Source: Clostridia bacterium
Lineage (GTDB): Bacteria; Bacillota; Clostridia; Christensenellales; UBA1242
Assembly (NCBI GenBank): GCA_017623705.1
Contig: JAGAOQ010000021.1
Location: 9,485 to 73,484 of the forward strand
DNA length: 64,000 bases
Direction of reading: 5' to 3'
Position 1 is the stretch's first letter; each line of letters opens with the position of its first letter. The notes beneath the pieces were generated by a model, which had not been told where the DNA came from, made no database searches, and saw only the letters and a list, made by a program, of their open reading frames with translations. The translations under genes were made by a program, and so were the position numbers. Shown one piece after another: positions 16,977 to 36,925 of this stretch.

Positions 16977-17071
16977 CAAGTAAATAATACGAACGGAAAA
17001 TTTGCGATAACTGGCAAATTTTATGCCAGGGATTTTTGGGGCGTGAAAATTGAATTAAATATTTAAGACAG

Positions 17072-17100
17072 AAAACTCAAGTTGAAATTTGAGTTTTTTT
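17072..17100 (+). terminator. rho-independent terminator after tRNA-Arg
   Basis: aaaactcaa-gttgaaat-ttgagtttt followed by a T-run. Confidence 0.6.
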
Positions 17101-17206
17101 GTTAATTAAAGTTAATGTTGCTTTTTGTATTTATCATTTATGAATATTCCATTTACACACTTTAATATTTTGATATATACTATTTAAGTATTTTTGACGA
17201 TTTCAT

Positions 17207-19349: not shown

Positions 19350-19353
19350 AAAA

Positions 19354-20241
19354 ATGAACATACAAATGGCATATTTATTAGGAATGATAATTGGTAACGG
19401 AGAAATACAAAGAAACAATTCTGCTACTAAAATTTTAATAAACATTCCACATAAGAACGAAAGAACAGATGATGGGAATGATGTAAAAATTTATGTAAAA
19501 GCAAGTATCACTGATATAAAATCAGCTTTAGAGCCAACCATTGGTACAATATTAAACTGTACTCAAAACAAATCGGTATCAACGATTTATTTTGAAAAAC
19601 CAAATTCTGATTATTTAATAACTGAAATTATGAGAATGTGTCAAAACGAAAGAACATTTGAAACAATGCACGTTCCACAGTATTTTTATACTGCATCACG
19701 AGATGAGATACTTTATTTTTTACGAGGCTTTTGTGATGTAACTGCTTATATACGAAAAAGTAATTGTTATATTGATGGAATAACACAGAGAGTGTATATT
19801 GAAATTATGCACAACTGGTATGTTGCTGCAGAAATATGTAATTTACTTAAAATAGTAGATATACCTGTTCAAACCATAGATTGGGCACATCCAAATATGA
19901 GAGATGGTAAATTAGCAAAATATAATCAAGGCAATCATAATTTTTGGAAAAAAGAACATCAAATTAAAATTACAGCAAATGAATTTTTGCCAATAGGTTT
20001 TACTGTTATTCACAAAAACAATGCACTTGAAAAATTTGCGAATGAAATGATTAACTATTATTCTAGGTTAGGCAAAAATATATCTGAAAAAACCCACAAA
20101 TTTTATTGGCAAAAAAAGAAGAAGCGTAGTTTACGTCCAAGCCATCCTGGAGAAAGTGATGTGTCAATTCCATCAGAAATTAGAGGGAAACATTATGATT
20201 GTTGGCAAGATATTGCAAATGATTTAGGTTATAGGGAGTAA
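19354..20241 (+). CDS. hypothetical protein with two degenerate LAGLIDADG-like motifs (possible DNA-binding or specificity component)
   Basis: 295 aa. AAGGAG RBS. AYLLGMIIGNGEI near the N-terminus and ILYFLRGFCDVTAYI about 110 aa later resemble LAGLIDADG helices, but the usual acidic catalytic positions are N and T. By-eye assignment only. Confidence 0.35.
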   Translation: MNIQMAYLLGMIIGNGEIQRNNSATKILINIPHKNERTDDGNDVKIYVKASITDIKSALEPTIGTILNCTQNKSVSTIYFEKPNSDYLITEIMRMCQNERTFETMHVPQYFYTASRDEILYFLRGFCDVTAYIRKSNCYIDGITQRVYIEIMHNWYVAAEICNLLKIVDIPVQTIDWAHPNMRDGKLAKYNQGNHNFWKKEHQIKITANEFLPIGFTVIHKNNALEKFANEMINYYSRLGKNISEKTHKFYWQKKKKRSLRPSHPGESDVSIPSEIRGKHYDCWQDIANDLGYRE

Positions 20242-20243
20242 TT

Positions 20244-20717
20244 GTGAGGGAATTTGATTTATATGAACCAATGGTTAATTGGTTAAAACAATACTTAGAG
20301 GGGAAATATAAAAATTGTGAAATCTTTGTAGAAGATACTCATTCTCAAAGGTTAGACCGAGCTTTACATAAATATGGAATAATAAATGATTTAGCAACTG
20401 GTGTCGATATTCAAATAGATGTCCTCGGTATTGTTAGAAAAAATGAATCATATAAATTATTCTTTATTGAAGCGAAGATTACAAAACTTACGCTGAGAGA
20501 TTTAGGTCAATTATGGGCATACTGCAAGTTGATTGACCCAGAAGAAGCATTTTTATTAACATCTGAAAGTTTTGGTTCTTTGAATAAAATTTTAAGAACT
20601 TTTGGGCGAGAAGATTTATTAGATTTTGGCAATGGAAAAAAAATAAAAAAGATGAAAGTTGGAATTTGGAATGTTGCTAGAAATAATATCGATTATATGA
20701 CACTAATACCACAGTAA
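20244..20717 (+). CDS. small PD-(D/E)xK-type nuclease (candidate restriction endonuclease)
   Basis: 157 aa. GTG start with AGGGAG RBS. VDIQIDVLGIV...LFFIEAK gives a D...ExK arrangement with a downstream QLWAY helix, as in restriction-endonuclease-fold proteins. Confidence 0.5.
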   Translation: MREFDLYEPMVNWLKQYLEGKYKNCEIFVEDTHSQRLDRALHKYGIINDLATGVDIQIDVLGIVRKNESYKLFFIEAKITKLTLRDLGQLWAYCKLIDPEEAFLLTSESFGSLNKILRTFGREDLLDFGNGKKIKKMKVGIWNVARNNIDYMTLIPQ

Positions 20718-20758
20718 AATTAAAAAATTCATATTTGGCAGTTAAACGTGTGCTTGTC

Positions 20759-20780
20759 TATATATACAAGTGGCGTCGCT
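20759..20780 (+). repeat. left copy of flanking direct repeat (inside a 14-bp inverted repeat, 20748-20761 / 20791-20804)
   Basis: Read directly from the sequence: gtgtgcttgtctat...atagacaagcacac encloses the repeat. Confidence 0.7.
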
Positions 20781-21237
20781 TCGCTCCGCCATAGACAAGC
20801 ACACTAAGCAAGCCAAAACGATGGCGAAAATTGGGTCGGTGCGCAGGCTTTTCACCGGACCCAATTTTTCTTTCCGCCGTCGTTGTTTTTTTCGGCACTG
20901 ATTTTTATCTGTGCCGTTTTAAATTTTTTGCATAGTCTTTTCGCTGTCAATGTTCTTTTTCATTGACAGTTTATATGCTAAAAATTTTGGGTCTTGCTTT
21001 TTCTAATACGGTGTGCTAGTCTATTCGCTGGTACGAAAAAAGACCACGCAAAATGACAATTAAATAGTATTAGTAAATTTTGTTAAGTGAACGGACCGCA
21101 ACTCGAAAAATTAACGAAGAATCAAATTCGGCCCGATTAAAAAAATAAAAAGTAAAAAATTGCATTTATGGGCGTTAAAGAAAATAGTGGCCAAATTTTC
21201 TTTGCGTCTTTTTTTGTCCTTAAAAGGAGTTAAAAAA

Positions 21238-21366
21238 ATGCAAAAACCAACAATCGTAATTAAGAATGATTTAGATTTATCTCTAATTAACAATGAGTTC
21301 ATTGTGGCAATGCTGAATTTAATTCTTAAGGATAAGGAGCAGGAAAATGGACTACATCAAAACTAA
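21238..21366 (+). CDS. small hypothetical protein (42 aa)
   Basis: AAAGGAG RBS 8 nt upstream of ATG 21238 (MQKPTIVIKNDLDLSL...). No family recognised. Confidence 0.35.
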   Translation: MQKPTIVIKNDLDLSLINNEFIVAMLNLILKDKEQENGLHQN

Positions 21367-21417
21367 AATCTATTTTGACGGTAGCCATTACATTGGCATT
21401 CCCAAAACAGCTCAGTA

Positions 21418-22224
21418 TTGGAAGAAAAAAAACACAAATCTAAACCACAAACAAATGAAACAGAAACAAAAGTTAAAGCAATGTTAAGTGAGAAAACAAA
21501 CGAAACTAAACAAGAGAAAACAAAACGAGTAATTAAAGAATTAGACAATGAAATAAAAAATTTTGCACACAGTAAATCAATTGTCGATAAAGTTATCAGT
21601 AAATATAAACGCAATCGTATTGTCAGATTAACTAGATTAAGTCGTAAAGTTGGATTACAACAATGGACACATTTTTGCACATTTACATATGATTCTAATA
21701 AATTAACAGAAACTGAATTTAGAGAAAAATTTTTAAATTGTATAAGACATTTATCCAATCGTAAAGGTTGGAAATACATTGGTGTCTTTGAACGCAGTCC
21801 AGAATTACAAAGACTTCATTTTCACGGCATCTTTGTCATTCCAGAAATGGTCGGCGAAATCATAGAAACCAAAGATTATTCTACCAAAACCCACCAAATG
21901 CAAATTGCTCATCAAAACACTTTCTTTTTAACACGCTTTGGTCGTAACGATTTCAAACCTATAGAAGATAATGCTACGGCACAGAAAGCCGTTAGATACA
22001 TCTTGAAATATATTCGTAAGACCGGTGAGAAAGTGATTTATTCTAAACACTTACAAACCTATTTTGTAACCGATGTTATGGAAGATGATGTAATTTGCAC
22101 AATCGGACAAGAGAACCGCAAGATTCTTCTCTTCGATGATTTTAAGTGTTGGGATTTGGTAAACGGAAAACTGTTTGGCATGGTGAGTAAAAAGTTGATA
22201 GATAACTTGCCAAAAGCTTTCTAA
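21418..22224 (+). CDS. rolling-circle replication initiator (HUH endonuclease, two-tyrosine type); true start probably 21347 via a frame change at the A8 tract
   Basis: FCTFTYD (motif 1), RLHFHGIF (HUH), AVRYILKYIRK (YxxKY as in the phiX174 gpA family). The track ORF starts at a TTG. An RBS-led ATG at 21347 lies in another frame. Confidence 0.7.
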   Translation: MEEKKHKSKPQTNETETKVKAMLSEKTNETKQEKTKRVIKELDNEIKNFAHSKSIVDKVISKYKRNRIVRLTRLSRKVGLQQWTHFCTFTYDSNKLTETEFREKFLNCIRHLSNRKGWKYIGVFERSPELQRLHFHGIFVIPEMVGEIIETKDYSTKTHQMQIAHQNTFFLTRFGRNDFKPIEDNATAQKAVRYILKYIRKTGEKVIYSKHLQTYFVTDVMEDDVICTIGQENRKILLFDDFKCWDLVNGKLFGMVSKKLIDNLPKAF

Positions 22225-22393
22225 GTGTCTTGTTCCGCCAGAGTGTAAACGGAATTGTTGCTCGGTCAAGGGTAAAGTGAATCGCTAGCGACCCTTGACC
22301 GTTAAGTAAAATCTTTAACTAAAAAATTACTAACAATTCCGTTTAACTCGTGGCTGTCGCAAGACAAAACAAAAAACATAAAGGAGGTAAAAA

Positions 22394-23902
22394 ATGAAAA
22401 CAGCAGTTGTGTATGCCCGATACAGCAGTGATAGTCAATCTGAGCAGTCGATTGAAGGTCAATTGCGAGTTTGTCAAGAGTACGCCAAGAATAATCAAAT
22501 TCTGATTGTTGACACTTATATCGACAGGGCAATGACGGGAACAAATGATTTAAGACCAGACTTTCAACGAATGATTCGAGATAGTAGCAAACGACAATGG
22601 AATTATGTGATTGTCTACAAACTTGACCGTTTTTCCAGAAATAAATATGAAACAACAATTCATAAACACACATTGCACAATAACGGAGTCAAAGTTTTGT
22701 CTGCTATGGAAAACATACCTGATACACCAGAAGGCATTATTTTAGAATCCTTGCTTGAAGGAATGAATCAATACTATTCCGCAGAGTTATCACAAAAAGT
22801 TCACCGTGGCTTAAACGAAAGCTACTTAAAAGGTCAATTCACTGGCGGAGCAACTTTGTATGGCTACGATATTGTGAACAAAAAAATTGTTATCAATCCG
22901 ACCGAAAGTGAAATAGTAAAAGAAATCTTTGCTAAATATGCACTTGGTTATACTGGTGTTTCAATTGCCAATGACTTAAAAAGTCGTGGCGTAAGGACAA
23001 AAGAAGGAAAGTATCTTAATGTCGCAAGAATTTACAAATTGATTAAAAATCCTAAATTTATCGGACAAACTATTCACAATGGTAAAGTTTATACTAACAT
23101 CTATCCAGCCATTATTGATGAACAAACTTGGCAAAAAGTTCAAGATGTTCGCAATACCAATAAACACTCTCATGGCAGGAAGAAAGAAGTTTATAATTTC
23201 ATCTTATCTGGTAAGTTAGTTTGCGGTCATTGTCATCATTTAATTGTTGGCGAAAGTGGGACTTCGGAAACCACGGGCAAACATTATTACTATAATTGTT
23301 TAAGTCGCAGAAGAAAGAAAGCCGTGTGTAATTTCCACGCTGTCAAAAAACAATGGCTAGAAGATTTAGTTATTCAAACAACTTGGCAGTTATTAAAAGA
23401 TAAAAACCAATTAGATGAAATTGCCAATATGATTTACCACAAACATCAAAATCTTAAAGATAAATTATCTAATGTTAAAGCATTAGAAATACGAAAGAGT
23501 AGTGCCGAAAAAGCAGTGAAGAATTTAATTACAGCACTGGAACAAGGTATTATTACCGAACAAACCAAAACCCGCTTACAAGAATTAGAAAAAGAAATTA
23601 TGCAATACAATTTTGAAATTGAACAAGAAAAACAACGAACCTACACCTACTTAACTTTGGATATGATAAAAAATTATTTATACAATGTTATACCTAATGA
23701 CAGTGTGCATACTATATCTGCACGCAAACACATTGTGAAATTATTTATTCGCGAAATTATTTTTGATAATCAAACATTAACAATTACTTACAATTTTACG
23801 GATAACAATCCCAGCAAACAACCGCTCGACGAAATCAACGAAGTCATCACTATCTCTAATAGTTCAAACAATCAAGAACCCCTTGCACCAATTCTAACGT
23901 AA
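22394..23902 (+). CDS. large serine recombinase
   Basis: 502 aa. AVVYARYSSDSQ catalytic-Ser motif, KLDRFSRN, recombinase domain, Cys4 zinc ribbon (CGHCHH...YYYNC), coiled-coil C-terminus. AAAGGAGG RBS. Confidence 0.9.
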   Translation: MKTAVVYARYSSDSQSEQSIEGQLRVCQEYAKNNQILIVDTYIDRAMTGTNDLRPDFQRMIRDSSKRQWNYVIVYKLDRFSRNKYETTIHKHTLHNNGVKVLSAMENIPDTPEGIILESLLEGMNQYYSAELSQKVHRGLNESYLKGQFTGGATLYGYDIVNKKIVINPTESEIVKEIFAKYALGYTGVSIANDLKSRGVRTKEGKYLNVARIYKLIKNPKFIGQTIHNGKVYTNIYPAIIDEQTWQKVQDVRNTNKHSHGRKKEVYNFILSGKLVCGHCHHLIVGESGTSETTGKHYYYNCLSRRRKKAVCNFHAVKKQWLEDLVIQTTWQLLKDKNQLDEIANMIYHKHQNLKDKLSNVKALEIRKSSAEKAVKNLITALEQGIITEQTKTRLQELEKEIMQYNFEIEQEKQRTYTYLTLDMIKNYLYNVIPNDSVHTISARKHIVKLFIREIIFDNQTLTITYNFTDNNPSKQPLDEINEVITISNSSNNQEPLAPILT

Positions 23903-23989
23903 TTCTAACTCACAGACGAAACCTAATAATTCCAATGCCATAATTTGGAAATCTTTGACCTTTTTGGATTTTAATTATATATTTTATCT

Positions 23990-25009
23990 ATGAAGCATAA
24001 AATTTTGAAAACTTTTATCTTAACATTTATTTTATTATTACCAATGGTAATCCTTGTAGGATGCGGAACAACAAATGAGTCAAATCAAGACAATGAATTG
24101 AAACAAGATAATGTATTTTATTTTGATGACGCTAATATCAACATTAACAACATTAATTTCAGTTTTTCTTGTTCAGAAACCAAAATTCAAAATACTGAAC
24201 TAAGAGTTACAATTACTGCAACTAATACTTTACTTAAAGACCAAATTCTTAATTTAGATAGTATAAAAGTAGTAAATGAAAAAACAAAAGTTGAATACAA
24301 ATATTCTGGTGCTACTTTTTATGGCGACATCACTTTGCAATATAATATAAAAACAAATTTATATTTTAATGCTTATATTCCAAGTTCTTATTTAACTGAA
24401 AACTATTACATTCAGTTTAATAACGGTGGCAATACTTATCGTATTAATTTATACGAAACACCAGATGAATTGAGAGAATCTCATACCGTTTCGTTCCAAC
24501 TTTTTTCTTACCCAAATTACAGCAATGTAAAGAATATTTCAGTTAAAGATAATAGGAAATTTGAAAAATATATTTATGAGAGTGGTGACCATCTATACTA
24601 TTGTGATACTTGGTATACTGATGAAGCAAGAACTAATGAATTTAATTGGAATTCCAAAATTACACAAGATGTTACTTTGTATGGATTTAAGTTTCCCAAT
24701 GTGCAATATTCAAGCAGTAGTGGAGAAACATTTGTATCAAAAATTAAATATGTTCCACAGGACGGAATTCTTGTTATTGATAGCTTTTCATCGAAAGTAT
24801 ATTTATCAAATTATGCCTTATATGATAATAATGATGTGAAAGAAATATATTTACCTAAAGAATTAAAAAAAATATACAATGGGAACTTTAATAAAATGAA
24901 TAATTTAGTTAAAATTCACTTTGCTGGAAGTGAAACCGAATGGAATGCCATAGAAAGCACTAGCACAATCCCATCAAATGTAACTATTATTTTTAATTCA
25001 AAGTATTAA
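23990..25009 (+). CDS. lipoprotein, function unknown
   Basis: Signal peptide with lipobox LVGC-G. N/Y/K-rich. The C-terminal IYLPKELKKIYNGNF...IHFAGSETEWNAI resembles BspA-type leucine-rich-repeat ends. Confidence 0.6.
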   Translation: MKHKILKTFILTFILLLPMVILVGCGTTNESNQDNELKQDNVFYFDDANININNINFSFSCSETKIQNTELRVTITATNTLLKDQILNLDSIKVVNEKTKVEYKYSGATFYGDITLQYNIKTNLYFNAYIPSSYLTENYYIQFNNGGNTYRINLYETPDELRESHTVSFQLFSYPNYSNVKNISVKDNRKFEKYIYESGDHLYYCDTWYTDEARTNEFNWNSKITQDVTLYGFKFPNVQYSSSSGETFVSKIKYVPQDGILVIDSFSSKVYLSNYALYDNNDVKEIYLPKELKKIYNGNFNKMNNLVKIHFAGSETEWNAIESTSTIPSNVTIIFNSKY

Positions 25010-25061
25010 ATTATCAATAATTTGAGTGTATAATATTAAACACAAACATTTGCTTGGAATT

Positions 25062-25090
25062 CTAGCGTGCCTTTATATATATAACAAGTG
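25062..25090 (+). repeat. partial extra copy of the flanking repeat (CTAGCGTGCCTTTATATATATAACAAGTG)
   Basis: It matches 25185-25211 except for a TA expansion, then diverges after ACAAGTG. Confidence 0.65.
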
Positions 25091-25184
25091 AATGAAAATT
25101 TGCGGTCAAAAATAGACTAAAAAAAATGGCTAATTTTAACAAAAAAAAGACGGTAATTTTACACAAAAATAGCAATTTGAGATC

Positions 25185-25219
25185 CTAGCGTGCCTTTATA
25201 TATAACAAGTGGCGTCGCT
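25185..25219 (+). repeat. right copy of flanking direct repeat
   Basis: CTAGCGTGCCTTTATATATAACAAGTGGCGTCGCT. Its 3' 23 nt match 20759-20780 apart from one extra A. Confidence 0.7.
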
Positions 25220-25240
25220 ACGTAGTACAAATATAAACTA

Positions 25241-25268
25241 AAAAAAGGACAGTGCTTTGTCCTTTTTG
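25241..25268 (-). terminator. rho-independent terminator of the dehydratase gene
   Basis: The minus strand reads aaaggac-aaagcact-gtccttttttt. Confidence 0.5.
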
Positions 25269-25314
25269 AAACACAAAAATTGTTTGTGCCAAGTGGTTGT
25301 TAGCGGGGAAGTCG

Positions 25315-26421
25315 TTATTTGTTTTCGCCGGCGTAGATTTTGTCTGCTTGCATTAAGAATTCACGGACTTGGCTTTCGGTAACGTGTAACATGTCTTTTT
25401 CTAACATATAATTGCTGGTCCATTCAACGATTGCTCGAATCGTGTTATCTATATTGTAGATAATGCGGTATCCTAACACGTTTTTTGCTTTTGTAATGTC
25501 CAAAGCCAATTTACTTGCTTCGTGGATAGTGTCTACTTTTTGTAAAACTTCATATTTTACTCTCGGTTCATGTTTACGATAATAATCTAAAAGCTGTTTA
25601 ATACTAATGCAGTTTTCATATTCAGGACCAATGTTATAACTTCCAGCAAATGCAACGTTCTCATATTGTAACATAGCTAACTTAACGTACATATATAATG
25701 GTTCAACCACATACTGAAAAGGACGAGTTGAATTTGGATTACTAATTACCACTGGTTCATTTTTAATCATGCTCTTGATACAATTAGGAATAATTCTATG
25801 CTCACCCCAATCACCACCACCAATAACATTACCAGCTCGACAAGTCGAAACACTCACACCATGTTCTGCGTATTTATCAGGATTAAAAAAACTTTTAATG
25901 TACGAATAGGTTACTAATTCACTACATGATTTACTATTAGAGTAGGGGTCATAACCACAGAGTGGGTCATTTTCAACAAATGGTTGACCAGAATCATTGT
26001 TTAAGTAAACTTTGTCAGTTGTAACATTGATTACACTTTTCACCGACGGTGTATTTCGAACGGCTTCCAACAAATTTACCGTTCCCATTACATTTGTTGC
26101 GTAAGTTTCTCTTGGTTGTTGGTAACCAGTAATCACAATCGCCTGCGCTGCTAAATGAAAAACAATTTCGGGCTTAAAATCTTGCATGACTTTAACTAAA
26201 TGATTGTAATCACAAATATCACCGACATGGTGTTCAATTAAATTTTTGCCATTGATTAGTGAAAACATATTAGGTGATGTTACTGGTTCAAGTGCATAAC
26301 CACAAACTTCTGCTCCTAATTCTCGTAAAAGAACAATTAACCAAGACCCCTTGAAGCCAGTATGTCCCGTAACAAAAACTCGTTTACCGTGATAAAAGTT
26401 TTTTAGCGTTAAAATGTCCAT
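25315..26421 (-). CDS. rfbG: CDP-glucose 4,6-dehydratase-like NAD-dependent dehydratase
   Basis: Start moved to ATG 26421 (AAGGGAAAA RBS). FYHGKRVFVTGHTGFKGSWL...LGAEVCGYALEP is the characteristic RfbG N-terminus. YSNSK catalytic motif. Confidence 0.8.
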   Translation of the reverse strand: MDILTLKNFYHGKRVFVTGHTGFKGSWLIVLLRELGAEVCGYALEPVTSPNMFSLINGKNLIEHHVGDICDYNHLVKVMQDFKPEIVFHLAAQAIVITGYQQPRETYATNVMGTVNLLEAVRNTPSVKSVINVTTDKVYLNNDSGQPFVENDPLCGYDPYSNSKSCSELVTYSYIKSFFNPDKYAEHGVSVSTCRAGNVIGGGDWGEHRIIPNCIKSMIKNEPVVISNPNSTRPFQYVVEPLYMYVKLAMLQYENVAFAGSYNIGPEYENCISIKQLLDYYRKHEPRVKYEVLQKVDTIHEASKLALDITKAKNVLGYRIIYNIDNTIRAIVEWTSNYMLEKDMLHVTESQVREFLMQADKIYAGENK

Positions 26422-26535: not shown

Positions 26536-27528
26536 TTAAAAGTTGTGCCAGTCGATGCCTTCTAGGTCGCTGTTGAATTCTTCGTAAGCTCCACAGAAGA
26601 CTGATGAAGTTTTGTCGCTGATTTGAATACTGAAAGTGTCTAAATCATAAGATAAATTTTCCAGCATAATGCCCGCTGTAAATTCGTCGTACGCAAAGAA
26701 AGGGAAGTGCTTTTGAAAAAGTTCTTTGATGTCTTTGGTTGTGTCTTTGGCTAAATATTCACTGATTTCATTTTTAATTATGTTGTCGTATTTTTGGTGG
26801 AAAATTTCTAAACATTTTTCGTTTGGGTATTTTTTCTCATCAATATTCCAATCTAGCCAAAAGCCAGTGTCTGTATCATGTGTATTCTCAATTGCATTGA
26901 ACATAAAATAATTGATAATATATTGACTGTGGCTTTCAATTTGTTTTCGCCACATTTCCACTGTTTCCAAGACAAAACTGATTTGTGCGTCAACTTCATC
27001 ATGTCGTTCTAAGGCACGTGCTAAAAGATAGCCAAAACCCAAACTATCTTTCTCAGTGGAAAACACACCTAAATTACCCAATTTAACTGCTTTTAATTTT
27101 GGTTTAACCAGTACTTCCAGTGCTTGTTCTTTCTGTTCTTGTTCTCGGTATCGTCGTGTGCGTTCTGCGAGTTTTAACTGTGCTTGTTTTTCTTTTTGTT
27201 TACGGTATAAAATAGCTACGCCATAAATTGAAATCGTCATCACTACGATAAATACCAAAGCATAAGTAATAACTAAATCTTCGTAATCAATCAAGCAAAC
27301 AATTCCGTACAAACCAAACAAGATACAATATAACGTTACTATTAGCACATCAAAAATCGTCATTAACCATTTTTCGTGCTTTTGTCGACAACGAATTAAA
27401 CGTCTCACAAATACCACAAGTGTGATAATTGACAACACGCAAATGCTAAGTTCTACAATCCCCCGTACATACCCGACTGCAACAACGTCATATTGACTGC
27501 TGGTGTTTTGAGCAACTTCCAAATTCAT
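26536..27528 (-). CDS. membrane protein with coiled-coil linker and unknown cytoplasmic C-terminal domain
   Basis: 330 aa. Three N-terminal TM helices, a K/E/Q-rich helix, then an acidic domain of about 180 aa. No family recognised. Confidence 0.55.
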   Translation of the reverse strand: MNLEVAQNTSSQYDVVAVGYVRGIVELSICVLSIITLVVFVRRLIRCRQKHEKWLMTIFDVLIVTLYCILFGLYGIVCLIDYEDLVITYALVFIVVMTISIYGVAILYRKQKEKQAQLKLAERTRRYREQEQKEQALEVLVKPKLKAVKLGNLGVFSTEKDSLGFGYLLARALERHDEVDAQISFVLETVEMWRKQIESHSQYIINYFMFNAIENTHDTDTGFWLDWNIDEKKYPNEKCLEIFHQKYDNIIKNEISEYLAKDTTKDIKELFQKHFPFFAYDEFTAGIMLENLSYDLDTFSIQISDKTSSVFCGAYEEFNSDLEGIDWHNF

Positions 27529-27584: not shown

Positions 27585-27614
27585 TAAAAAAGACACCGAG
27601 GTGGGTGTCTTTTG
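27585..27614 (-). terminator. rho-independent terminator after the 392-aa paralog
   Basis: The minus strand reads gacacc-cacctc-ggtgtc followed by TTTTTT. Confidence 0.6.
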
Positions 27615-27620
27615 GTTGTG

Positions 27621-28799
27621 TTACATCGTGCGGGTGGTGTCATCGGTGTGGATTAAGTTTTTTGCTTTGGCGAACAACTGTTTTAACACGTTGGGACAAG
27701 GTTGGATTGCCAGTTTACTTTTCTTGATTGCATGTTTCTTGACTTTATTTTTTTGCCAGTCAATACGTTTGAGCAATTCGACTTCGTTGTCAAAAGCTTC
27801 GTTGATAAAATTGAAATTACGCTTATCGATGCGTTTTAAGAATTCCACTTGATTGTTAAAAGTTTCGTCAAAAAAGTCAAAATTACATTCAAATGTGTAG
27901 TTCTGTTCGTAACCGTTCAAGTAGTTACGCACCAATGATGACTTCCAACGGTTTTCCAAAGTAAAATCGTACTCGTCGTATTGATAAGGCATTTCGTTCA
28001 AGACTTTGTGCGACATTAAATCAATCGTTGTTGCTGTGCCTGTGCCTTTGGGGTTGATTGTGGTGGGTAATTCTTGCCAGTTCAAAATCCGCCATTGTAG
28101 TGGCACAACCGGAGCAAGTAATTCCAGCACATTATTTTTGTTCACAAATTTCTTGCCTTTCATTGAGTATTCGTAGCCACGGTAAACTTCGTAATCGCCC
28201 TTTGCGAACAAGCGGGGACTTAAATATTCTTTGCCAGTTGGGACTTGTTTATGTTTTGCAGGGGAGTAAATGGAACTCAAATTGAAGTCGGGATATTCAC
28301 CAAAGTTAAGGCACATGTATTCCTTTTTGCCGTTTGTCGCTTGGTAAGGTGTGTGGCTGTAATTTTTGTTTTTTTCCAAAACTTGTAACAATTTAATGTA
28401 AGCGTTAACATCTAAACGCACACAAGGACGAATCCCCAATTTTTTCCCAACAAATAATTCGTCGGGCAATTTAACTTTATCACCGTTTAATTGGTAAGGT
28501 TTATGTTCCTCGTAATCAATCATGTTATCTTCGTAGATGATGGCGTTTTGCAAACCCGTTCGGTTGTCAATACAACCATCAATCACTGCTGTTGGTACAT
28601 TTCTTTCCAGTGGTGTAAAATGCTCGTTCCGTAACCAATATTTGCCACTTTCCGCACTGTTGTCATGCACGATAAAGTCTTCCCGTTCAAAACGATATTT
28701 GTTAACCAATTCGTCATAAGTTGGTAAGTAAACCAAATCATTAACTTCGTGTCCTTTCGTACCAATTTTGGTACGCACAATTAAATCTTTAAGTTCCAT
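27621..28799 (-). CDS. paralog C of the MELKDLIV family (WWLR / RPC.RL / W.ILNW..LP domain protein)
   Basis: 392 aa, no signal peptide. It shares N-terminus MELKDLIV, YWLRN, IRPCVRLDVNAY, FGEYPD, WRILNWQELP...GTGTATTIDL and SLVRNYLNGY with 28881-29795 and with the N-terminal half of 31509-33686. Its own TTGTTT-17-TATAAT promoter lies at about 28815-28845. Confidence 0.7.
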   Translation of the reverse strand: MELKDLIVRTKIGTKGHEVNDLVYLPTYDELVNKYRFEREDFIVHDNSAESGKYWLRNEHFTPLERNVPTAVIDGCIDNRTGLQNAIIYEDNMIDYEEHKPYQLNGDKVKLPDELFVGKKLGIRPCVRLDVNAYIKLLQVLEKNKNYSHTPYQATNGKKEYMCLNFGEYPDFNLSSIYSPAKHKQVPTGKEYLSPRLFAKGDYEVYRGYEYSMKGKKFVNKNNVLELLAPVVPLQWRILNWQELPTTINPKGTGTATTIDLMSHKVLNEMPYQYDEYDFTLENRWKSSLVRNYLNGYEQNYTFECNFDFFDETFNNQVEFLKRIDKRNFNFINEAFDNEVELLKRIDWQKNKVKKHAIKKSKLAIQPCPNVLKQLFAKAKNLIHTDDTTRTM

Positions 28800-28880
28800 A
28801 ATTTTTCCTTTTGCTTTAATTTTTTATTCGTATATTATAGCGAACAGGTTGGCAAAAAACAAGGGGCTTAGCAATTTTCC

Positions 28881-29795
28881 TTAACAATTTTCCATGGATT
28901 GAATAAAAGCTTTCATGTCGGGAATCAAATCACGTAAAGCTTCGGGGTTAGTTTTGAGCGTACGCAAGAAATCTTTTTTCAAAAAAATTAAGTTTGTATC
29001 CAAGGTAAACGCTTTCTTCTTGGCTTCGGTTAAGGTGTAAATGTTTTGCAACAAAGCTTGTTCTTCGGCGAAAGCGTGGTCAAGGAAACTCAACTGTTGT
29101 TCGCCGTAACCGTTCAAATCACGACGAATTGCACTTTTTTCCCAGGTCGTATAGTGATAGAAATCTTCAAGGCGAAAGGTAAAGTTTGACATACCAATGG
29201 TATCCAAACTGATTAAATCAATCGTTTTCGCCGTGCCATTGCCTTTGTAATTAAGTGAGGGCGGTAATGAATCCCAATTCAAAATTCGCCAACGAATACT
29301 TTGTTCAATCTTTTTCCCGTGTTTGATGTCAAAATGTTTTCCCAAATCCAAGCAGGGATAATCCATCTTATACGGCAAATAACTGCTGTCAAGGCGAGCC
29401 ATTTGTTCGTAAGTTTCCAAATTCAAACGCATACAAGGGCGGACATTACATTGACATTTATGCGGTTCGTAAGCATTGCGTGCTTTTATGTTTAATTTAT
29501 ATAAGTAGTTAAAAATGTTATCGTCCCACTCTTTCATTTCGCTCATCAACATGGGGTAGTGTGTCCCGCTTTGATTGCTAACGCACCCGTCGGCGTAAAG
29601 TTGGTTTGAACCCGTTAATTTGTCAATTTTGTCGTTGCGTAGCCACCAGAAGTCAACATTATCTTGCCAACTAACCATCAAGTCTTTTTTCGTGAAATGG
29701 TATTTTTCGGTCAACTCACGATAACTCGGCAGGTAAATCATATCGGTTACAGTTTCGCTCAATTTAGTTGGAACAATTAAATCTTTTAACTCCAT
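28881..29795 (-). CDS. paralog B of the MELKDLIV family
   Basis: 304 aa. MELKDLIVPTK, FWWLRN, VRPCMRLNLETY, WRILNWDSLP...GNGTAKTIDL, AIRRDLNGY. Confidence 0.7.
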   Translation of the reverse strand: MELKDLIVPTKLSETVTDMIYLPSYRELTEKYHFTKKDLMVSWQDNVDFWWLRNDKIDKLTGSNQLYADGCVSNQSGTHYPMLMSEMKEWDDNIFNYLYKLNIKARNAYEPHKCQCNVRPCMRLNLETYEQMARLDSSYLPYKMDYPCLDLGKHFDIKHGKKIEQSIRWRILNWDSLPPSLNYKGNGTAKTIDLISLDTIGMSNFTFRLEDFYHYTTWEKSAIRRDLNGYGEQQLSFLDHAFAEEQALLQNIYTLTEAKKKAFTLDTNLIFLKKDFLRTLKTNPEALRDLIPDMKAFIQSMENC

Positions 29796-29844
29796 ATTAT
29801 TTTCCTTTTAGTTTTGTTACTATTATATTCACCGCCCGAGCAAA

Positions 29845-31131
29845 TTACAAGACCCGATTTGATAATTGTTGTTCGTTGGCTGGCGAACGACGTAAACCGA
29901 GCGAATTTGGTTGAATACGGCAAGTGGTGAGTTTATGTTGCAAGTCATTGATTTGTTGACGGTCGACGAAAATAACTTTGCCACAACACGGCTTGAAGAC
30001 ATCATTTGCCCACACCAACCAGTACAAGTTTTTGATTTTTTGGTTTTCGGGTGTGTTAGAAACATCAGAAAAACCATCGGTAAAAACAATTTTATTAACC
30101 TTGCGGTCGTGCGAAAAATTTTCCAGAGCAATGTCAAAGTTTGTTCCGCCACGCCCAACAATATCGAAGTATTCAATGTCGTGAGTTTTTTTAATTTCGT
30201 CAAACCCGTAAAAGCGAGTATCGAAACAACCAACTAACAATTTGGAATCTTTGGCTAAATGCTTAACTTGTCGCAAGAAAGCTCGCAACATATCTTCACT
30301 CACCGAACCACTGGTGTCCAACATGACTTCCACAATGGCTTTGTCGTCGTTGGTTACCGTGCCAATACGAGCTTGATAATCATTGTCTTCGTCGGCTCGG
30401 CGGTAAGACCAACGGTCTTCGTCTTGCTCTAATTCACGACGTAAAATTTGTTTCCACGAAACAATCGCTTTGGCTTCGCCGACCTTACCAACGCCCAAAC
30501 CATTGCCACCCGCAGTTTGTCCGCCTTCTTTGGCTTCGTTGCTGGCTTGCTTTAATTCTTGACGAATCTTTTCGGCTAACTCTTTTTTGAGCGTTTGGTT
30601 TTGAGCGGTAAATGATTTTTCTTGCTGACTTGCTTGTGCATCGCCGTCCTGCGTTTGCGTGTCGTCTTGTCCCTGTTGTCCTTGCTGTTTAACCGCATCG
30701 CCCCATGCTTGATGTTGTTGCGGGTTTTGGTTTTGATTTTGCTTGTCTTGTGCCAACATTTCGTAAACTTCATCGGCGGATTTGCCTTTCGCTTCGGGCA
30801 GGTTAATTCCACCTTGCGGAAGTGGTAAATTGGCTTCCATTAACATTTGATTGATGACAGCATCGGTTGCGATGTTCCAACGTTTCGCATCTTTACCACG
30901 ACTTCTCATGATGTGGTCAAAAGCCACGTGCATCACTTCGTGTGCCAATAAAAACATTCGTTCTTCCAAACTTAACTTACTCAAAAAACTCGGCGAATAC
31001 TTAACTTGCTTGCCGTTCGTTTCCGCAGTTTCCACTCGGTCATCGCTGGTGAAAATCAACTTTGCCATCACCGAACCCAACAACGGAAATTTACTTAACA
31101 CCCCTTGCTTAACCTCTTCAAGCATACGCAC
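29845..31131 (-). CDS. HExxH metallopeptidase-like domain fused to a VWA domain (DUF2201-type)
   Basis: 428 aa. LLAHEVMHVAFDH...ATDAVIN N-terminal domain, a Q/N/D-rich linker, and a C-terminal VWA domain with MIDAS-like DTSGS. Overlaps the upstream ORF by 14 nt. Confidence 0.75.
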   Translation of the reverse strand: MRMLEEVKQGVLSKFPLLGSVMAKLIFTSDDRVETAETNGKQVKYSPSFLSKLSLEERMFLLAHEVMHVAFDHIMRSRGKDAKRWNIATDAVINQMLMEANLPLPQGGINLPEAKGKSADEVYEMLAQDKQNQNQNPQQHQAWGDAVKQQGQQGQDDTQTQDGDAQASQQEKSFTAQNQTLKKELAEKIRQELKQASNEAKEGGQTAGGNGLGVGKVGEAKAIVSWKQILRRELEQDEDRWSYRRADEDNDYQARIGTVTNDDKAIVEVMLDTSGSVSEDMLRAFLRQVKHLAKDSKLLVGCFDTRFYGFDEIKKTHDIEYFDIVGRGGTNFDIALENFSHDRKVNKIVFTDGFSDVSNTPENQKIKNLYWLVWANDVFKPCCGKVIFVDRQQINDLQHKLTTCRIQPNSLGLRRSPANEQQLSNRVL

Positions 31132-31534
31132 CTACCCGATAAATTAAACTCAAACTTTGAATCCGTGGCGATACCTTACTTAACTCGGTAACAGGTAAAA
31201 TAATTTGCGTATCCGCTGGCAAATGATAACCGTTCAAACTGTAATGTTCTAACAGACCAATGAACTTGGCTTGTTCGTCAAAAGTAATTTGCTCTAAACC
31301 GTCAATGCACAACAATAAACGTTTGCCCGCTTTGGCTTTCACTAAAATTGACATTAACCACTTCGGGTATTGATAACCGTCCGCCGTTGGGACAATCCCT
31401 AATTCACTGGACGGTGTCGTGGCGGGGACGATTACCGCCGTAGGAAAGTTCGACGCTTGCAAACCTTCCAACAAAAGCGGACTGCCAACATTCTGCGTGA
31501 TGATTGCTTCAAGCTTTTGCTTTGTCGTTGTCAT
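31118..31534 (-). CDS. small degenerate AAA-like protein (no intact Walker A)
   Basis: 138 aa. PLLLEGLQASNFP stands where LLLEGPPGTGKT would be, and LLLCIDGLEQ where Walker B would be. It overlaps both neighbours (26 nt and 14 nt). Confidence 0.4.
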   Translation of the reverse strand: MTTTKQKLEAIITQNVGSPLLLEGLQASNFPTAVIVPATTPSSELGIVPTADGYQYPKWLMSILVKAKAGKRLLLCIDGLEQITFDEQAKFIGLLEHYSLNGYHLPADTQIILPVTELSKVSPRIQSLSLIYRVGAYA

Positions 31535-33686
31535 TGCTGTTTCCCCTTAAAATTTGGTTATCTTCGGCAATTTGGATTGATTTCAAATGTAAAGCTTTTT
31601 CGTCATCGTTGCCGACCCATGCCACATCAAACATCTTCAAAATTTCCGCACCCAAATGTTCCCGAATGAAGTTACGTACCAACTTAATTTCATCAATTTT
31701 GGCAAAACGCAACGAAAGAGCTAACGCATATTTCGCATCAAATTTAGTCGGGATTTCGTTATAGTCATAATTTTCGGTAACAACGTCTTCCACCGTAATC
31801 GGCAAGATTTTAGCGTACTCCATTAACGAAGTTGCGATTGATTTACCAACTTTGTTTTCCAACAATTCTTTGCGTAACACACCATGATTAGCATAAATCA
31901 AATCGCTAACTTTTTCCCAACCACGTGGGTCAATCGCATACTTCGGCGGATTCTCGGCATCGTAAGGTGAATAAAAAACACTGTCGCCATAAGTCCCCAC
32001 AAAACTGGCAACCAACGGGTGAACCCTTAATTGACCTTGATGTTTAAGACTATTTTTGCTACCCCATTCTAACCATTGTTGAATATCGGGTTTCAATTCG
32101 ATATGCCCATCAAAACGGCGGAACAACGGCTCTGGCATGTTATACGCAGCTTCACTTTCGTCAATACTATTACCCGCCGCCGCAACAACTACGTTATCGG
32201 GTAACTGTCCTACGTTAGGTCCAATCGCTCGGTTTAAGACAATGTGGTAAACCAAACTTTGTTCGTTCGGCTTGACGTTGGTAATTTCATCAATGAACAA
32301 GACGTGATTTTGGTTCGGTTCTTGTTGACACTTTTTACACAAATCAGCGTACCAGTAGGGTGGTACCCAAATTCCCGCTTGCGTCTTGTCGTTGTTAGGA
32401 TAAATGTTTTTACCGATAACCTCTTCGGGTAAAATTCCGTTACGTAAAGTAATGGAAACATAGTCGGGGTCAACTTCTTCAATACGACGAGTTTTTCCAA
32501 TTCCGCTGGGCCCGTGCAACATAAACGACTTACCGTTCTGGACGTAGAATTGAATTTGCTCGTCAACCGTCATCGGTTCTTCCACAACTTGCACGCCCCA
32601 ACCTTTACGCTTTTGGTTGTTTTGTAAAGCATTTTTGTCAATCTGGCTAATGATTTCAATTTCCTTGCTAAACGCTTGGTTGATGAAATTATACTTCGTA
32701 AAATCGCCACCGTTTGGGGCAGGGTACTTAACGTTACCGTTTTCAATGAGATTGTTCACGTTGTAACCGTTCAAGAAACCACGAATTGTACTATTCTGCC
32801 ATAACGTAATGTTCTGGTCTTGTTGGTTAGGATAAAAGGGGATTCCCGCCATCACAGCGTTCAAAGTTTGTAAGATAATCCTTTTGGTGCTTCCCGTCCC
32901 ATTGCGGTTAATACTTTGCGGTAACTCTTCCCAGTTTTTAATTTCCCACATGATTGGCTTAACTTCCACCCAGTAACCATTATTATGATAACCTTTGTTA
33001 ATGCGGACATATTTCTTGCCGTCTAATTCGTATTCGTTATAAAAATTTGGTTTCGTATTTTTCTTTTCAAAACAACCGGTGTAAGTTTTTCCTGTCGGCA
33101 CAATCGCTCGTTTTTCAAAAGCTTGTTCTAAATGGTCGTTTAATTTTGCTCCCACATATTGATCGGGAAATTCACCTAACTCCATAAAATGGAATTTATC
33201 GTTACAATTACTAATCTTAAAAGATTTTACATTACGAAAGCGAACATCACTTTTCAAAGCGTTTCGCACCGCCAAATAAGCGTTGATGTCTAACACCATG
33301 TTTGGACGTAACGCATGCGGTAAGCGACGTTCGTAAGCATTGGCACAAAAAACTTCACCTTGGTCGTTGAGCACAGCAACTTTGTTTTCACGGTTGTAAG
33401 CATAAATACTCGGGAAACCAGAACGCAACCACAGACGACATGGTTCATAAGTTTCTTTGTTTTGATTTTTAGTTAACGCCGAGATTAAATTTTCTTCGGC
33501 TAAATCACCGAAAGCTTGATTCAAAATTGCGTAGTCAGTGGGAAAGCATTTTTCTTTGTCTGAACAATATCGAGAAGACGGCAAATAGACCATATCTCTG
33601 GTTTGAAAATTAACATCATAACTGAAATGGTTACATTCGTCAGTGTTTTCCAACAAAATCGGCACAATTAAATCTTCTAATTTCAT
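31509..33686 (-). CDS. fusion protein: MELKDLIV-family domain (paralog A) plus MoxR-like AAA+ ATPase (AAA_5 type)
   Basis: 725 aa. N-terminal half carries MKLEDLIVP, LWLRS, LRPNMVLDINAY, FGEFPD, MWEIKNWEELP, TIRGFLNGY. C-terminal half carries Walker A LHGPSGIGKT, Walker B VLFIDEITN, AAAGNS, PLFRRF. AAAGGAG RBS. Confidence 0.8.
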   Translation of the reverse strand: MKLEDLIVPILLENTDECNHFSYDVNFQTRDMVYLPSSRYCSDKEKCFPTDYAILNQAFGDLAEENLISALTKNQNKETYEPCRLWLRSGFPSIYAYNRENKVAVLNDQGEVFCANAYERRLPHALRPNMVLDINAYLAVRNALKSDVRFRNVKSFKISNCNDKFHFMELGEFPDQYVGAKLNDHLEQAFEKRAIVPTGKTYTGCFEKKNTKPNFYNEYELDGKKYVRINKGYHNNGYWVEVKPIMWEIKNWEELPQSINRNGTGSTKRIILQTLNAVMAGIPFYPNQQDQNITLWQNSTIRGFLNGYNVNNLIENGNVKYPAPNGGDFTKYNFINQAFSKEIEIISQIDKNALQNNQKRKGWGVQVVEEPMTVDEQIQFYVQNGKSFMLHGPSGIGKTRRIEEVDPDYVSITLRNGILPEEVIGKNIYPNNDKTQAGIWVPPYWYADLCKKCQQEPNQNHVLFIDEITNVKPNEQSLVYHIVLNRAIGPNVGQLPDNVVVAAAGNSIDESEAAYNMPEPLFRRFDGHIELKPDIQQWLEWGSKNSLKHQGQLRVHPLVASFVGTYGDSVFYSPYDAENPPKYAIDPRGWEKVSDLIYANHGVLRKELLENKVGKSIATSLMEYAKILPITVEDVVTENYDYNEIPTKFDAKYALALSLRFAKIDEIKLVRNFIREHLGAEILKMFDVAWVGNDDEKALHLKSIQIAEDNQILRGNSNDNDKAKA

Positions 33687-35485: not shown

Positions 35486-36925
35486 ATGAAAGGGTTTAAG
35501 CAGTTCGGTTTCTTGTTATGCACTGGTTTAATCGGCTTTTTGGTCGGTGTCATTGCTACCATGCAAACACCAAATTTAAGTGCGTCCGAAACAACAGGAC
35601 ATGAACACACTTTAACTGCTCACCAACAAATTGACGCTACTTGTACCCAAGCTGGAACTCGTGCTTACTGGGAATGTGAAACTTGTGATTTGTTATTTAC
35701 CGACGCTAATGATATTTACGAAATTGACCTTAACGAATTTATTGCGTGGAAAGTCTTACCCAAACTCAACCACAAAACTAACGAGAATTATCACGTTGCT
35801 TACCAAAAACCAACTTGTGCCAGCAACGGTAACCAAGAATATTACATGTGCATCAATGGTTGTGGACAATACTTCCAAGACCAACATTGCCAAATTTTAA
35901 TTCCCGAAAAAAACGTTACCATTAAAAATGATAAAGCTATGCACACTTTAACCTTAGTTGAAGCTAAGACCGCAACTTGTGCCGAAGCAGGGCATATCCA
36001 ACATTATAATTGTACCACCTGCCACAAAAATTTTAGCGATATTTACGGCACCGAAATTAACAACGTAACAACCACCCTCGACCACGATTTGACTTATGTT
36101 AACGCTACCAATCCAACCTGCTTCACCGACGGCGAATATGCACACTATCACTGCAAAAATTGTCATCAAGATTACAGCGACGCTGCTTGTACAGACCAAA
36201 TGACAACGACCGTAATTCCTCATTTGGAACATAGCTCGTACGCTTCACATTATGTTGATTATCAAGCCCCAACTTGCGAAACAGCAGGACACCACGCTTA
36301 CTACCTTTGTGAACACGGTTGCGGACTAAAATTCAAAGAAGTAACTTGCGACAATTTATACACCGCAAACGAATTAACTATTCCCGCTTACGGACATAGC
36401 TGGACTTATGTTAAAGCTGACGAAAATCAAACCGCAAAATATGAATGCGATACAAACGGCAACTTTCAACACGGCTGGATTAAATACGACATCGTTTGTA
36501 CTCACGACGGTTGCGATGGTTACAACGGTAGCAAAGAATTCTGTGGCTTTGCCAAATTAGACAAAACCAACAACACCGAATCCAAAGTTACGCACACGAT
36601 TGATTATCTTGTCCAAGACGAAACATTACAAGAAGTATACGATTTGTTTACCTTAGACTGGAATCAAAGCACAATCGCTTATGACGACCAAAATCAAGCT
36701 TACACAACAATTACGTTGAAACTGGCAGATACTTACAACACACAAGCAAAATACACCTACCAAGACGTAACCAACGACTTAAACACAATCATTGATTCAA
36801 ACCGTTTAAGCTTAACCGTTTACTTAAACGCAAAAGACACCAACGACATGATTACATGGCGACTTGATTGGGACGCCGACGGCATCTACGAACAAACGAT
36901 TAAAGTTGCGATTCAAAATTATTAA
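35486..36925 (+). CDS. membrane-anchored or secreted protein with five Cys-rich repeats
   Basis: 479 aa. N-terminal TM/signal segment. Five copies of H-x-[AP]TC-x2-G-x4-Y-x-C-x2-C-x3-F/Y-x-D spaced about 50 aa apart. Confidence 0.65.
   Translation: MKGFKQFGFLLCTGLIGFLVGVIATMQTPNLSASETTGHEHTLTAHQQIDATCTQAGTRAYWECETCDLLFTDANDIYEIDLNEFIAWKVLPKLNHKTNENYHVAYQKPTCASNGNQEYYMCINGCGQYFQDQHCQILIPEKNVTIKNDKAMHTLTLVEAKTATCAEAGHIQHYNCTTCHKNFSDIYGTEINNVTTTLDHDLTYVNATNPTCFTDGEYAHYHCKNCHQDYSDAACTDQMTTTVIPHLEHSSYASHYVDYQAPTCETAGHHAYYLCEHGCGLKFKEVTCDNLYTANELTIPAYGHSWTYVKADENQTAKYECDTNGNFQHGWIKYDIVCTHDGCDGYNGSKEFCGFAKLDKTNNTESKVTHTIDYLVQDETLQEVYDLFTLDWNQSTIAYDDQNQAYTTITLKLADTYNTQAKYTYQDVTNDLNTIIDSNRLSLTVYLNAKDTNDMITWRLDWDADGIYEQTIKVAIQNY

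Follow-up and report, generated by a model that had tools for sequence, protein, structure and literature searches.

The 64,000-nucleotide (nt) stretch of contig JAGAOQ010000021.1 from a Clostridia bacterium (assembly GCA_017623705.1; the whole stretch is called the window below) carries on its minus strand three genes whose products share one diverged domain. These copies are referred to as A (31509-33686, 725 residues), B (304 residues) and C (392 residues); proteins and loci retrieved from relatives bear P and L numbers. The three open reading frames (ORFs) coincide exactly with those given in an earlier inspection of the sequence (hereafter, the original prediction). Copy A, a 138-residue ORF, a 428-residue ORF, copy B and copy C follow one another in that order and are overlapping or tightly spaced (Table 1). 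Sequence comparisons identify A, B and C as paralogous copies of a circularly permuted, and presumably cytoplasmic, DUF6273 module.

The view that the three proteins are diverged paralogs with an ordered set of conserved blocks is borne out by significant pairwise BLASTP matches: B and C are 29% identical, A aligns with C over A residues 125-362, and A and B share, next to their main match, a separate N-terminal one (5e-4). Multiple alignments place all blocks in the order that had been claimed, namely M-x-L-x-DLIV, YLPS/T, WLR, RPC/N, FGEYPD, WxIxNW..LP..G.G, LNGY and F..xAF, and only the N-terminal part of A, from residue 1 to about residue 362, takes part, again as claimed. The statement that similarity at the DNA level is restricted to the first 25 nt or so did not hold, since longer similar stretches are found among the copies. 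Copies B and C share 76% identity over 80 nt that span the WxILNW..GTG block, where A reaches 61%, and a 46-nt stretch over the LNGY block is 76% identical between A and B. The repeat at the gene starts reaches upstream of the ATG into a purine-rich stretch that resembles a ribosome-binding site (RBS).

Copy C does contain an internal tandem duplication, which the original prediction had placed at about 27745-27850 and which we place slightly differently (Table 1): its two units share 11 of 17 residues and 37 of 51 nt. It was not called by Tandem Repeats Finder and is absent from P0002, the C orthologue. Copy B is without most of the FGEYP beta sub-domain, and its profile match is split into two parts (1-140 and 166-234). 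The AlphaFold2 (AF2) model of C has a predicted local distance difference test (pLDDT) score of 76.8 and a predicted template modelling (pTM) score of 0.79; residues 93-96 and 99-105 stay below a pLDDT of 50. Foldseek searches of PDB and BFVD with this model returned nothing at E ≤ 1e-3, and a sequence-profile search of PDB with the family alignment gave 0 matches.

The original prediction likened the motif pattern to DUF6273 (PF19789). As they stand, A, B, C and their halves show no match to this Pfam model even at E ≤ 10, and no other Pfam model is matched by the domain. Three homologues score above the DUF6273 gathering threshold of 23.5 bits, P0002 (24.7), P0003 (38.4) and P0009 (35.4), and their matches are partial and out of order: residues 8-132 of P0003 correspond to profile positions 56-171, and residues 258-311 of P0002 correspond to positions 6-62. 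The canonical module consists of part M (the FGEYP beta part), part W (WxvL..LRxWLN..F..AF) and part C (vFLLS..WWLRS..VRPAL), in this order. When the canonical secreted proteins P0160 and P0161 are compared with the family profile, the FGEYP part comes first, the Pfam-covered W part follows and the WWLRS..VRPAL part is last. The window copies run C-M-W from residue 1, so that YLPS, WLR and RP are followed by FGEYP, WxILNW, LNGY and F..AF. Each window copy was cut, re-joined as M-W plus C and rescored against DUF6273. The re-permuted copy A reached 31.3 bits (profile 28-171) and copy C 26.9 bits (28-140), with copy B just below the threshold at 22.7 bits; each match is one contiguous stretch that runs over the artificial junction, and scores of homologues also go up. 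Because the pieces matched in the homologues are out of order and the matches of the window copies become contiguous after re-joining, we regard the domain of A, B and C as a circular permutant of the canonical secreted DUF6273 module. The comparison with DUF6273 was thus right as to homology once the halves are reordered (copies A and C above the cutoff, copy B marginal), though not as to the native copies, which miss the Pfam model.

The N-terminal M-E-L-K-DLIV block and the C-terminal F..EAF..E.E...ID block are each the counterpart of the canonical “aF..eE...I..t.V” element found at the cut point, and the element duplicated within copy C is the same one. In the secreted tandem-repeat proteins P0016 and P0021 the block order of the window appears as a frame-shifted view of the repeats, and these repeats would supply the duplication intermediate for the permutation. 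Profile searches join DUF6273 and the permuted family at E ~1e-60, and the two have the blocks WxvL, LRxWLN, F..AF, vFLPS..E, TDYA, WWLRS and VRPAL in common. DUF6273, known from secreted Firmicute proteins, is a C-type-lectin-like (CLec) module and a target of diversity-generating retroelements (DGRs) in gut phages (tentaclins, Mtd-like; PMC10743442, PMC11792537); its WLRS-RPAL segment is the DGR variable repeat there and in relatives of the present family (PMC11792537). The permuted family differs in its C-M-W order, in having no signal peptide and in starting at residue 1, and its partners are an AAA+ ATPase or leucine-rich repeats (LRRs), whereas those of DUF6273 are Ig-like or InlB-repeat domains.

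The extent of the family was seen in an exhaustive profile search, in which 927 cluster representatives passed E ≤ 1e-3 and 147 passed E ≤ 1e-30 (the word-indexed homologue search gave 4-10 proteins per query). In nearly all 927 representatives the domain starts at the first residues of the protein. Fifty-six long members were scanned for further domains, and AAA_5 was detected in 20 (E ≤ 1e-3), BspA-type LRRs in 16 and a DUF6273 match in 11. A hydrophobic N-terminus is present in 7 of the 161 retrieved relatives; six of these are canonical secreted-type proteins, and the start of the remaining one, P0136, seems to have been called wrongly. None of A, B and C has a hydrophobic N-terminus, and they thus lack the secreted or surface context of DUF6273. 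Since they carry no signal peptide, a cytoplasmic location appears likely, in agreement with the original prediction and with the fusion of copy A to an AAA+ ATPase.

The Walker A and Walker B motifs of the ATPase half of A, GPSGIGKT and LFIDE, are kept in 65/66 and 61/66 relatives, respectively, and this half matches phrog_1297 at 2e-34. Its top Foldseek matches are CbbQ2 (6l1q) and NorQ (9qh4-9qhg, the NorQ hexamer with the VWA (von Willebrand factor type A) domain of NorD), with E ~1e-9 and TM-scores of 0.6-0.7; McrB was also matched. The Pfam thresholds are missed by A of the window (AAA_3, 21.9 with a cutoff of 27; AAA_5, 13.2 with a cutoff of 22). In hhalign, the 138-residue protein aligns with the AAA profile around Walker B (probability 83.5%, E = 8e-6), and it is best described as an AAA fragment without a P-loop, because LLLEGLQASNFPT stands where the ATPase has FMLHGPSGIGKT. 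It has no match in Pfam, NCBIfam or PADLOC. Genes of this type lie 3′ of the AAA gene in most complete related cassettes, and the protein may act as a ring cap or regulator.

The 428-residue protein combines a zincin motif, HEVMH (residues 64-68), in DUF2201_N with a VWA-like DUF2201 domain that bears a DTSGS metal-ion-dependent adhesion site (MIDAS) motif, and it matches phrog_1314 at 2.6e-69. Among 46 relatives of this VWA-peptidase HExxH is kept in 45 and the MIDAS motif DxSGS in 42. Sequence searches of PDB with the AAA half of A, the VWA protein and the 138-residue protein found no meaningful relatives. A genome scan with the AAA alignment retrieved 60 loci, all from gut metagenome-assembled genomes (MAGs) labelled Clostridia, Christensenella, Alphaproteobacteria, Bacilli or Muribaculaceae, and hidden Markov model mapping showed the cassette, that is, a domain-AAA gene, a gene of about 130 codons and a zincin-VWA gene, in most of them; a search for related loci with protein A alone as the query gave none. 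The original prediction had overlooked this AAA+/VWA-peptidase operon. Tandem domain-AAA genes occur in L031, L044 and L011. Expansions seen elsewhere comprise two tandem domains on one ATPase of 1082 residues (L020:7871-11119), three domain-AAA genes in one locus (L031:893-11197) and two successive cassette starts (L011:7199-13876).

Table 1. Features of the A-B-C locus, with positions numbered from the first letter of the window
Feature	Position	Strand	Basis or remarks
N-terminal domain of copy A	32601..33686	-	Profile match 1-366, E=3e-111; BLASTP to C 1e-24, to B 2e-10; AF2 pLDDT mostly ~90
Copy A, segment from WLR (86-88) to RP (127-128)	33300..33431	-	hmmalign register with the L047 and L027 variable repeats; counterpart of the variable repeat in DGR-bearing relatives
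AAA+ ATPase module of protein A, MoxR/CbbQ/NorQ-like, with C-terminal helical domain	31509..32600	-	Motifs, phrog_1297, Foldseek
138-residue AAA fragment without Walker A	31118..31534	-	26-nt overlap with the end of A
428-residue zincin-like metallopeptidase and VWA-like protein (DUF2201_N + DUF2201)	29845..31131	-	Pfam 1.1e-34 and 4.9e-10
Copy B, stand-alone paralogue	28881..29795	-	BLASTP to C 8e-32; split profile match; conserved C-terminal helical tail
Copy B, segment from WLR (51-53) to RP (119-120), variable-repeat equivalent	29430..29645	-	Positions from ORF translation and BLASTP alignment
Copy C, full-length stand-alone paralogue	27621..28799	-	Profile match 1-373, E=3e-64
Copy C, segment from WLR (55-57) to RP (124-125), variable-repeat equivalent with long insert	28422..28637	-	BLASTP and hmmalign register
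Internal duplication in C, F..xxF..xVE.LKRID helix (F309-D325, F331-D347)	27759..27875	-	At the permutation junction element
Palindromic terminator-like hairpin just past C	27588..27613	.	Consensus scan only

Related genomes differ in the set of copies that they carry at the syntenic site beside pyk. All three are present in the window and in two near-identical assemblies (L010, L071), while L008, L013 and L014 have A and a B orthologue. In L001, A is split into a domain part and an ATPase part, and a C orthologue (P0002) lies on the opposite strand. The split gene of L001 (7467-9577) is made up of a 282-residue domain ORF and a 414-residue ATPase ORF that still starts with the domain tail, and it may reflect a frameshift or pseudogene, or else sensor and motor that have become separate naturally; the labelling of the 282-residue gene as an acyltransferase was dropped, because it encodes the domain detached from the A orthologue. 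B and C group in one sub-clade with P0078, P0017, P0002 and the AAA-fused P0034, and A belongs to the main clade. A stand-alone copy beside the cassette was found nowhere outside this lineage. Judging from these comparisons, B and C are lineage-specific additions 3′ of the cassette that come from the B/C-type sub-clade.

The proteins of the window were compared with their relatives at the pyk site. SerS, GlyS and Pyk are 90-95% identical, and the AAA half of A is 64-70% identical; the values are 50-53% for the 138-residue protein, 47-56% for the VWA protein, 37-40% for B, 46% for C and 34-41% for the domain of A. Since an identity of about 30% between the paralogues means saturation, the ratio of nonsynonymous to synonymous substitution rates (dN/dS) was taken at the strain level. 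Between the window and a close strain it is 0.115 for A, 0.135 for B and 0.064 for C, with housekeeping genes at about 0.05. This points to purifying selection, and with dN/dS of 0.06-0.14 all three can therefore be taken to be functional genes. In A, 17 of the 19 strain-level replacements fall in the domain, and in B, 9 of 20 fall in the WLR-RP segment. An alignment of 166 family members gives this segment the top column entropy (3.56 bits) and a length ranging from 14 to 76 residues; part W is the most conserved of the domain, at about 1.9 bits. The domain, as these sequence comparisons indicate, evolves much faster than its surroundings and yet is under purifying selection in all three copies.

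Homologous reverse transcriptases are encoded directly upstream of the domain-AAA gene in 7 of the 60 loci (L023, L025, L026, L027, L028, L047 and L048). Pairs of template repeat and variable repeat were inspected in three of them, L026, L027 and L047. In each, a template repeat comes before the reverse transcriptase gene, and the variable repeat lies within the domain, from the WLRS codons to RPAL. Mismatches fall at template adenines in 23 of 25 cases in L047, in 11 of 12 in L026 and at 15 of 15 core positions in L027. In L026 (6893-12998) and L047 (1607-7617), weak sub-threshold bAvd-like matches are seen, and the template repeat is located between the bAvd-like ORF and the reverse transcriptase gene. 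In all three inspected loci the variable repeat is close to the 5′ end of its target, an unusual position for DGRs. Because it lies between the WLR and RP blocks, these blocks can be viewed as constant flanks of a hypermutated binding surface.

The proposal that the domain is a recognition module gains support from these data, as the WLR-RP interval is the most variable part of the family and is the DGR variable repeat in relatives. Since related bacteria hypermutate this same domain, it is most likely a variable recognition module. In the window itself neither a reverse transcriptase homologue nor a repeat of the template/variable type was found, so that A, B and C do not qualify as DGR targets at this locus. 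Diversification of the N-terminal part of a midasin/AAA_5-like ATPase protein has been described as “UVR4” in bacteria of the candidate phyla radiation (CPR; Wu et al. 2018, PMC5758913). The UVR4 repeat was left unclassified, and its hosts are CPR bacteria as opposed to gut Clostridia or Alphaproteobacteria; the two may be related.

The closest known concept, by analogy, would be that of the MoxR-vWA conflict systems, in which C-type lectins (FGS) serve as sensors (Kaur et al. 2020, PMC7159879; Doré et al. 2024, PMC10907252). Common to both are a MoxR-class AAA+ ATPase, a VWA protein, a peptidase and a CLec-type variable binder, as well as DGR linkage in a subset of loci and a fast-evolving sensor. 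The differences are several. Here the sensor is fused to the ATPase, and there to the vWA protein or to a separate target; the peptidase, there a VMAP of trypsin or caspase type, is here a zincin N-terminal to VWA (DUF2201); the third gene encodes a degenerate AAA fragment; and the CLec is of the permuted DUF6273 type and not of the FGE-sulfatase type. The hosts are gut anaerobes known from MAGs only, whereas the described systems come from multicellular cyanobacteria, actinobacteria and Chromatiales. In structure, the ATPase half is best matched by CbbQ-CbbO and NorQ-NorD, which share with the cassette an adjoining VWA partner with a MIDAS motif. These ATPases are without an N-terminal recognition domain and act on one fixed client each (Rubisco and NorB), and their VWA partners are without a protease.

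Homologues of the VWA protein are found in 434 phage records, those listed being N4-like, at 25-29% identity over about 85% of the length. In the N4-like phage locus L072 an ATPase gene, a 135-residue ORF and a DUF2201 gene follow in the same order as in the window, beside helicase and polymerase genes. The ATPases of the window and the phage match by BLASTP at 7e-18, and no BLAST similarity was found between the 135- and 138-residue proteins. These phage genes correspond to N4 gp24 (AAA+) and gp25 (vWFA) of Schitoviridae, which belong to the core gene set of N4-like viruses and have no known function (PMC2784036, PMC7650795); the ATPase (phrog_1297) and the DUF2201 protein (phrog_1314) are homologous to those of the cassette, with the same order and a small ORF in between. 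The phage ATPase (340 residues) differs in having no lectin-like N-terminal domain, and its gene belongs to a DNA-replication module. By tblastn the permuted domain was matched neither in 50,697 phage genomes nor in plasmids, nor was it matched in IMG/VR with the two motif patterns that were tried. We rejected the label “HNH endonuclease” carried by phrog_1314 and by RefSeq phage records (NC_055823.1, NC_023556.1 and others), as Pfam gives zincin plus VWA-like; on the N4 gp25-type DUF2201 protein this name looks like a propagated misannotation.

The best explanation overall, in which we place a little more belief than doubt, is that the permuted DUF6273 domain serves a MoxR-VWA system of the conflict type as its variable ligand sensor, a function assigned by inference. 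The loop region between the WLR and RP blocks would form the ligand-binding surface, and the AAA+ ring would display six such domains. The VWA protein would dock on the ring in the manner of NorD on NorQ or CbbO on CbbQ, bringing with it a MIDAS site and an active metalloprotease, so that ligand capture would lead to ATP-driven remodelling and to proteolysis. For this genome, the source of alternative specificities would be gene duplication (A, B, C) in place of a retroelement, B and C probably being extra receptors or regulators of the same machine. Because relatives diversify the domain by DGRs and the domain evolves faster than the motor, the ligand would most likely be variable and foreign, for example, a phage or mobile-element component. 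A bolder form of this idea, put forward tentatively and rated somewhat less likely than not, is an undescribed innate or anticipatory immune receptor of gut bacteria, in which a MoxR-type hexamer carries its own lectin-like antigen binders and passes ligands to a VWA-tethered metalloprotease; the repertoire would be generated by DGRs (L047, L025-L028) or by duplication (A, B, C), and N4 gp24/gp25 would be a phage counterpart without the domain.

Several results weigh against a sensor of a conflict system. Six proteins compared with PADLOC-DB 2.0 gave no meaningful match; the matches to DolB (0.009 over 18 residues), FlhF and ZorB (4e-4, from the neighbouring membrane protein) were dismissed as noise. 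The flanking genes in 29 loci are ordinary and unrelated, with no recurrent neighbour and no defence island. The cassette of the window lineage occupies a fixed syntenic site beside pyk near the replication origin (oriC), which looks housekeeping and not mobile, and all of its genes are under purifying selection at the strain level. The window has neither a reverse transcriptase nor a template repeat, and none of the strain-level replacements of A falls within the WLR-RP segment. The stand-alone members P0003 and P0004 are located away from any cassette.

Chief among the rivals is a housekeeping chaperone that serves one fixed client: the AAA+/VWA pair would mature or repair one specific endogenous complex, the lectin-like domain would only link the pair to this client, which may be glycosylated or belong to the cell envelope, and B and C would serve further clients. 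We consider it unlikely. In its favour, the closest solved structures are CbbQ and NorQ-NorD, the syntenic site next to pyk is stable in four related genomes, selection is purifying and defence models gave no matches. Its supporting neighbours in the window, glycosyltransferases, an acyltransferase and CDP-glucose 4,6-dehydratase, are not conserved ones, since pyk lies directly upstream in L008 and no flank family recurs in the 29 loci. A fixed client also leaves unexplained why DGRs hypermutate the binding surface in two host groups that are far apart, why the domain is 34-41% identical beside housekeeping proteins that are 90-95% identical, and why a single genome may hold several cassettes or domain-AAA genes in tandem (L011, L031, L044). 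Furthermore, the VWA partner has what appears to be an active protease, which CbbO and NorD are not known to have.

Two other readings seem very improbable to us. The locus could be a prophage remnant holding a domesticated or resident N4 gp24/gp25-type unit, with the lectin-like domains as phage proteins of receptor-binding type. The PHROG matches (AAA 2e-34, VWA 2.6e-69), the 434 phage records with a VWA-protein homologue and the same three-gene layout, and the role of DUF6273 as a DGR target in gut phages (PMC10743442, PMC11792537) would fit, but there are no other phage genes in the flanks, chromosomal synteny is conserved, identity to the phage proteins is just 25-29%, phage AAA proteins of 340 residues do not have the domain, and the permuted domain was unmatched in the 50,697 phage genomes, in plasmids and, with the patterns tried, in IMG/VR. 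We likewise give little credence to B and C being decaying, functionless duplicates and the paralogue expansion mere debris of tandem duplication. Loss of the FGEYP sub-domain from B, erosion of the WLR, RP and WxILNW motifs in the B orthologue of L008 and the differing copy numbers of relatives are what such decay would leave; against it stand intact frames in the window, L010 and L071, dN/dS of 0.135 (B) and 0.064 (C), orthologues kept across genomes at 37-46% identity, the well-conserved C-terminal tail of B, and conserved RBS-like sequences upstream of B and C.

DUF6273, hitherto known only as a surface or phage receptor-binding domain and DGR target, gains with this family a presumed intracellular role and a clear evolutionary route leading from tandem repeat to circular permutation. 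The cassette represents a new MoxR-VWA architecture, with the sensor on the motor and the protease on the VWA domain, widespread in uncultured gut bacteria of several phyla, and its homology gives a lead on the core phage genes N4 gp24/gp25. DGR targeting in relatives argues for variable-ligand binding and would extend the idea of a “hypermutated antigen sensor” from multicellular bacteria to gut commensals.

The A-138aa-VWA-B-C transcription unit likely ends at the hairpin just past C. Beyond it lie the gene of a 330-residue membrane protein and that of CDP-glucose 4,6-dehydratase. ORFs of the size of dnaA, dnaN, gyrB and gyrA are found elsewhere in the window, at 44-53 kb, and in related contigs rnpA, rpmH, dnaA, dnaN, serS, glyS, gmk and pyk directly adjoin the cassette, which is why we place the locus near the replication origin. 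The 330-residue protein (26536-27528) has N-terminal transmembrane helices, a charged coiled-coil stretch and weak ZorB/MotB-like matches (E = 4e-4). It is kept 3′ of the cassette in this lineage only (L014, 52% identity), and it was set aside as probably not a member of the system because of this limited conservation and the terminator-like hairpin between C and its gene.

In the same variable zone beside pyk, a 479-residue protein (35486-36925) with an N-terminal membrane helix and repeated Cys/His-rich units (CxxxG..xY..C..C) has no family match and evolves fast, being 44-49% identical to its relatives with dN/dS of 0.22 relative to the close strain. Positions 17000-26000 of the window hold a plus-strand gene block with a G+C content of 28-34%, compared with about 40%, which looks like an acquired surface or polysaccharide island; a 339-residue lipoprotein-like ORF in this block (23990-25009) has a C-terminus resembling a BspA-type LRR. 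Lastly, the minus-strand ORFs 11152-11985 (277 residues) and 15015-15869 (284 residues), 3.8 kb apart, form a paralogous pair unrelated to A, B and C, with common DNA stretches of 40-50 nt at 73-78% identity.

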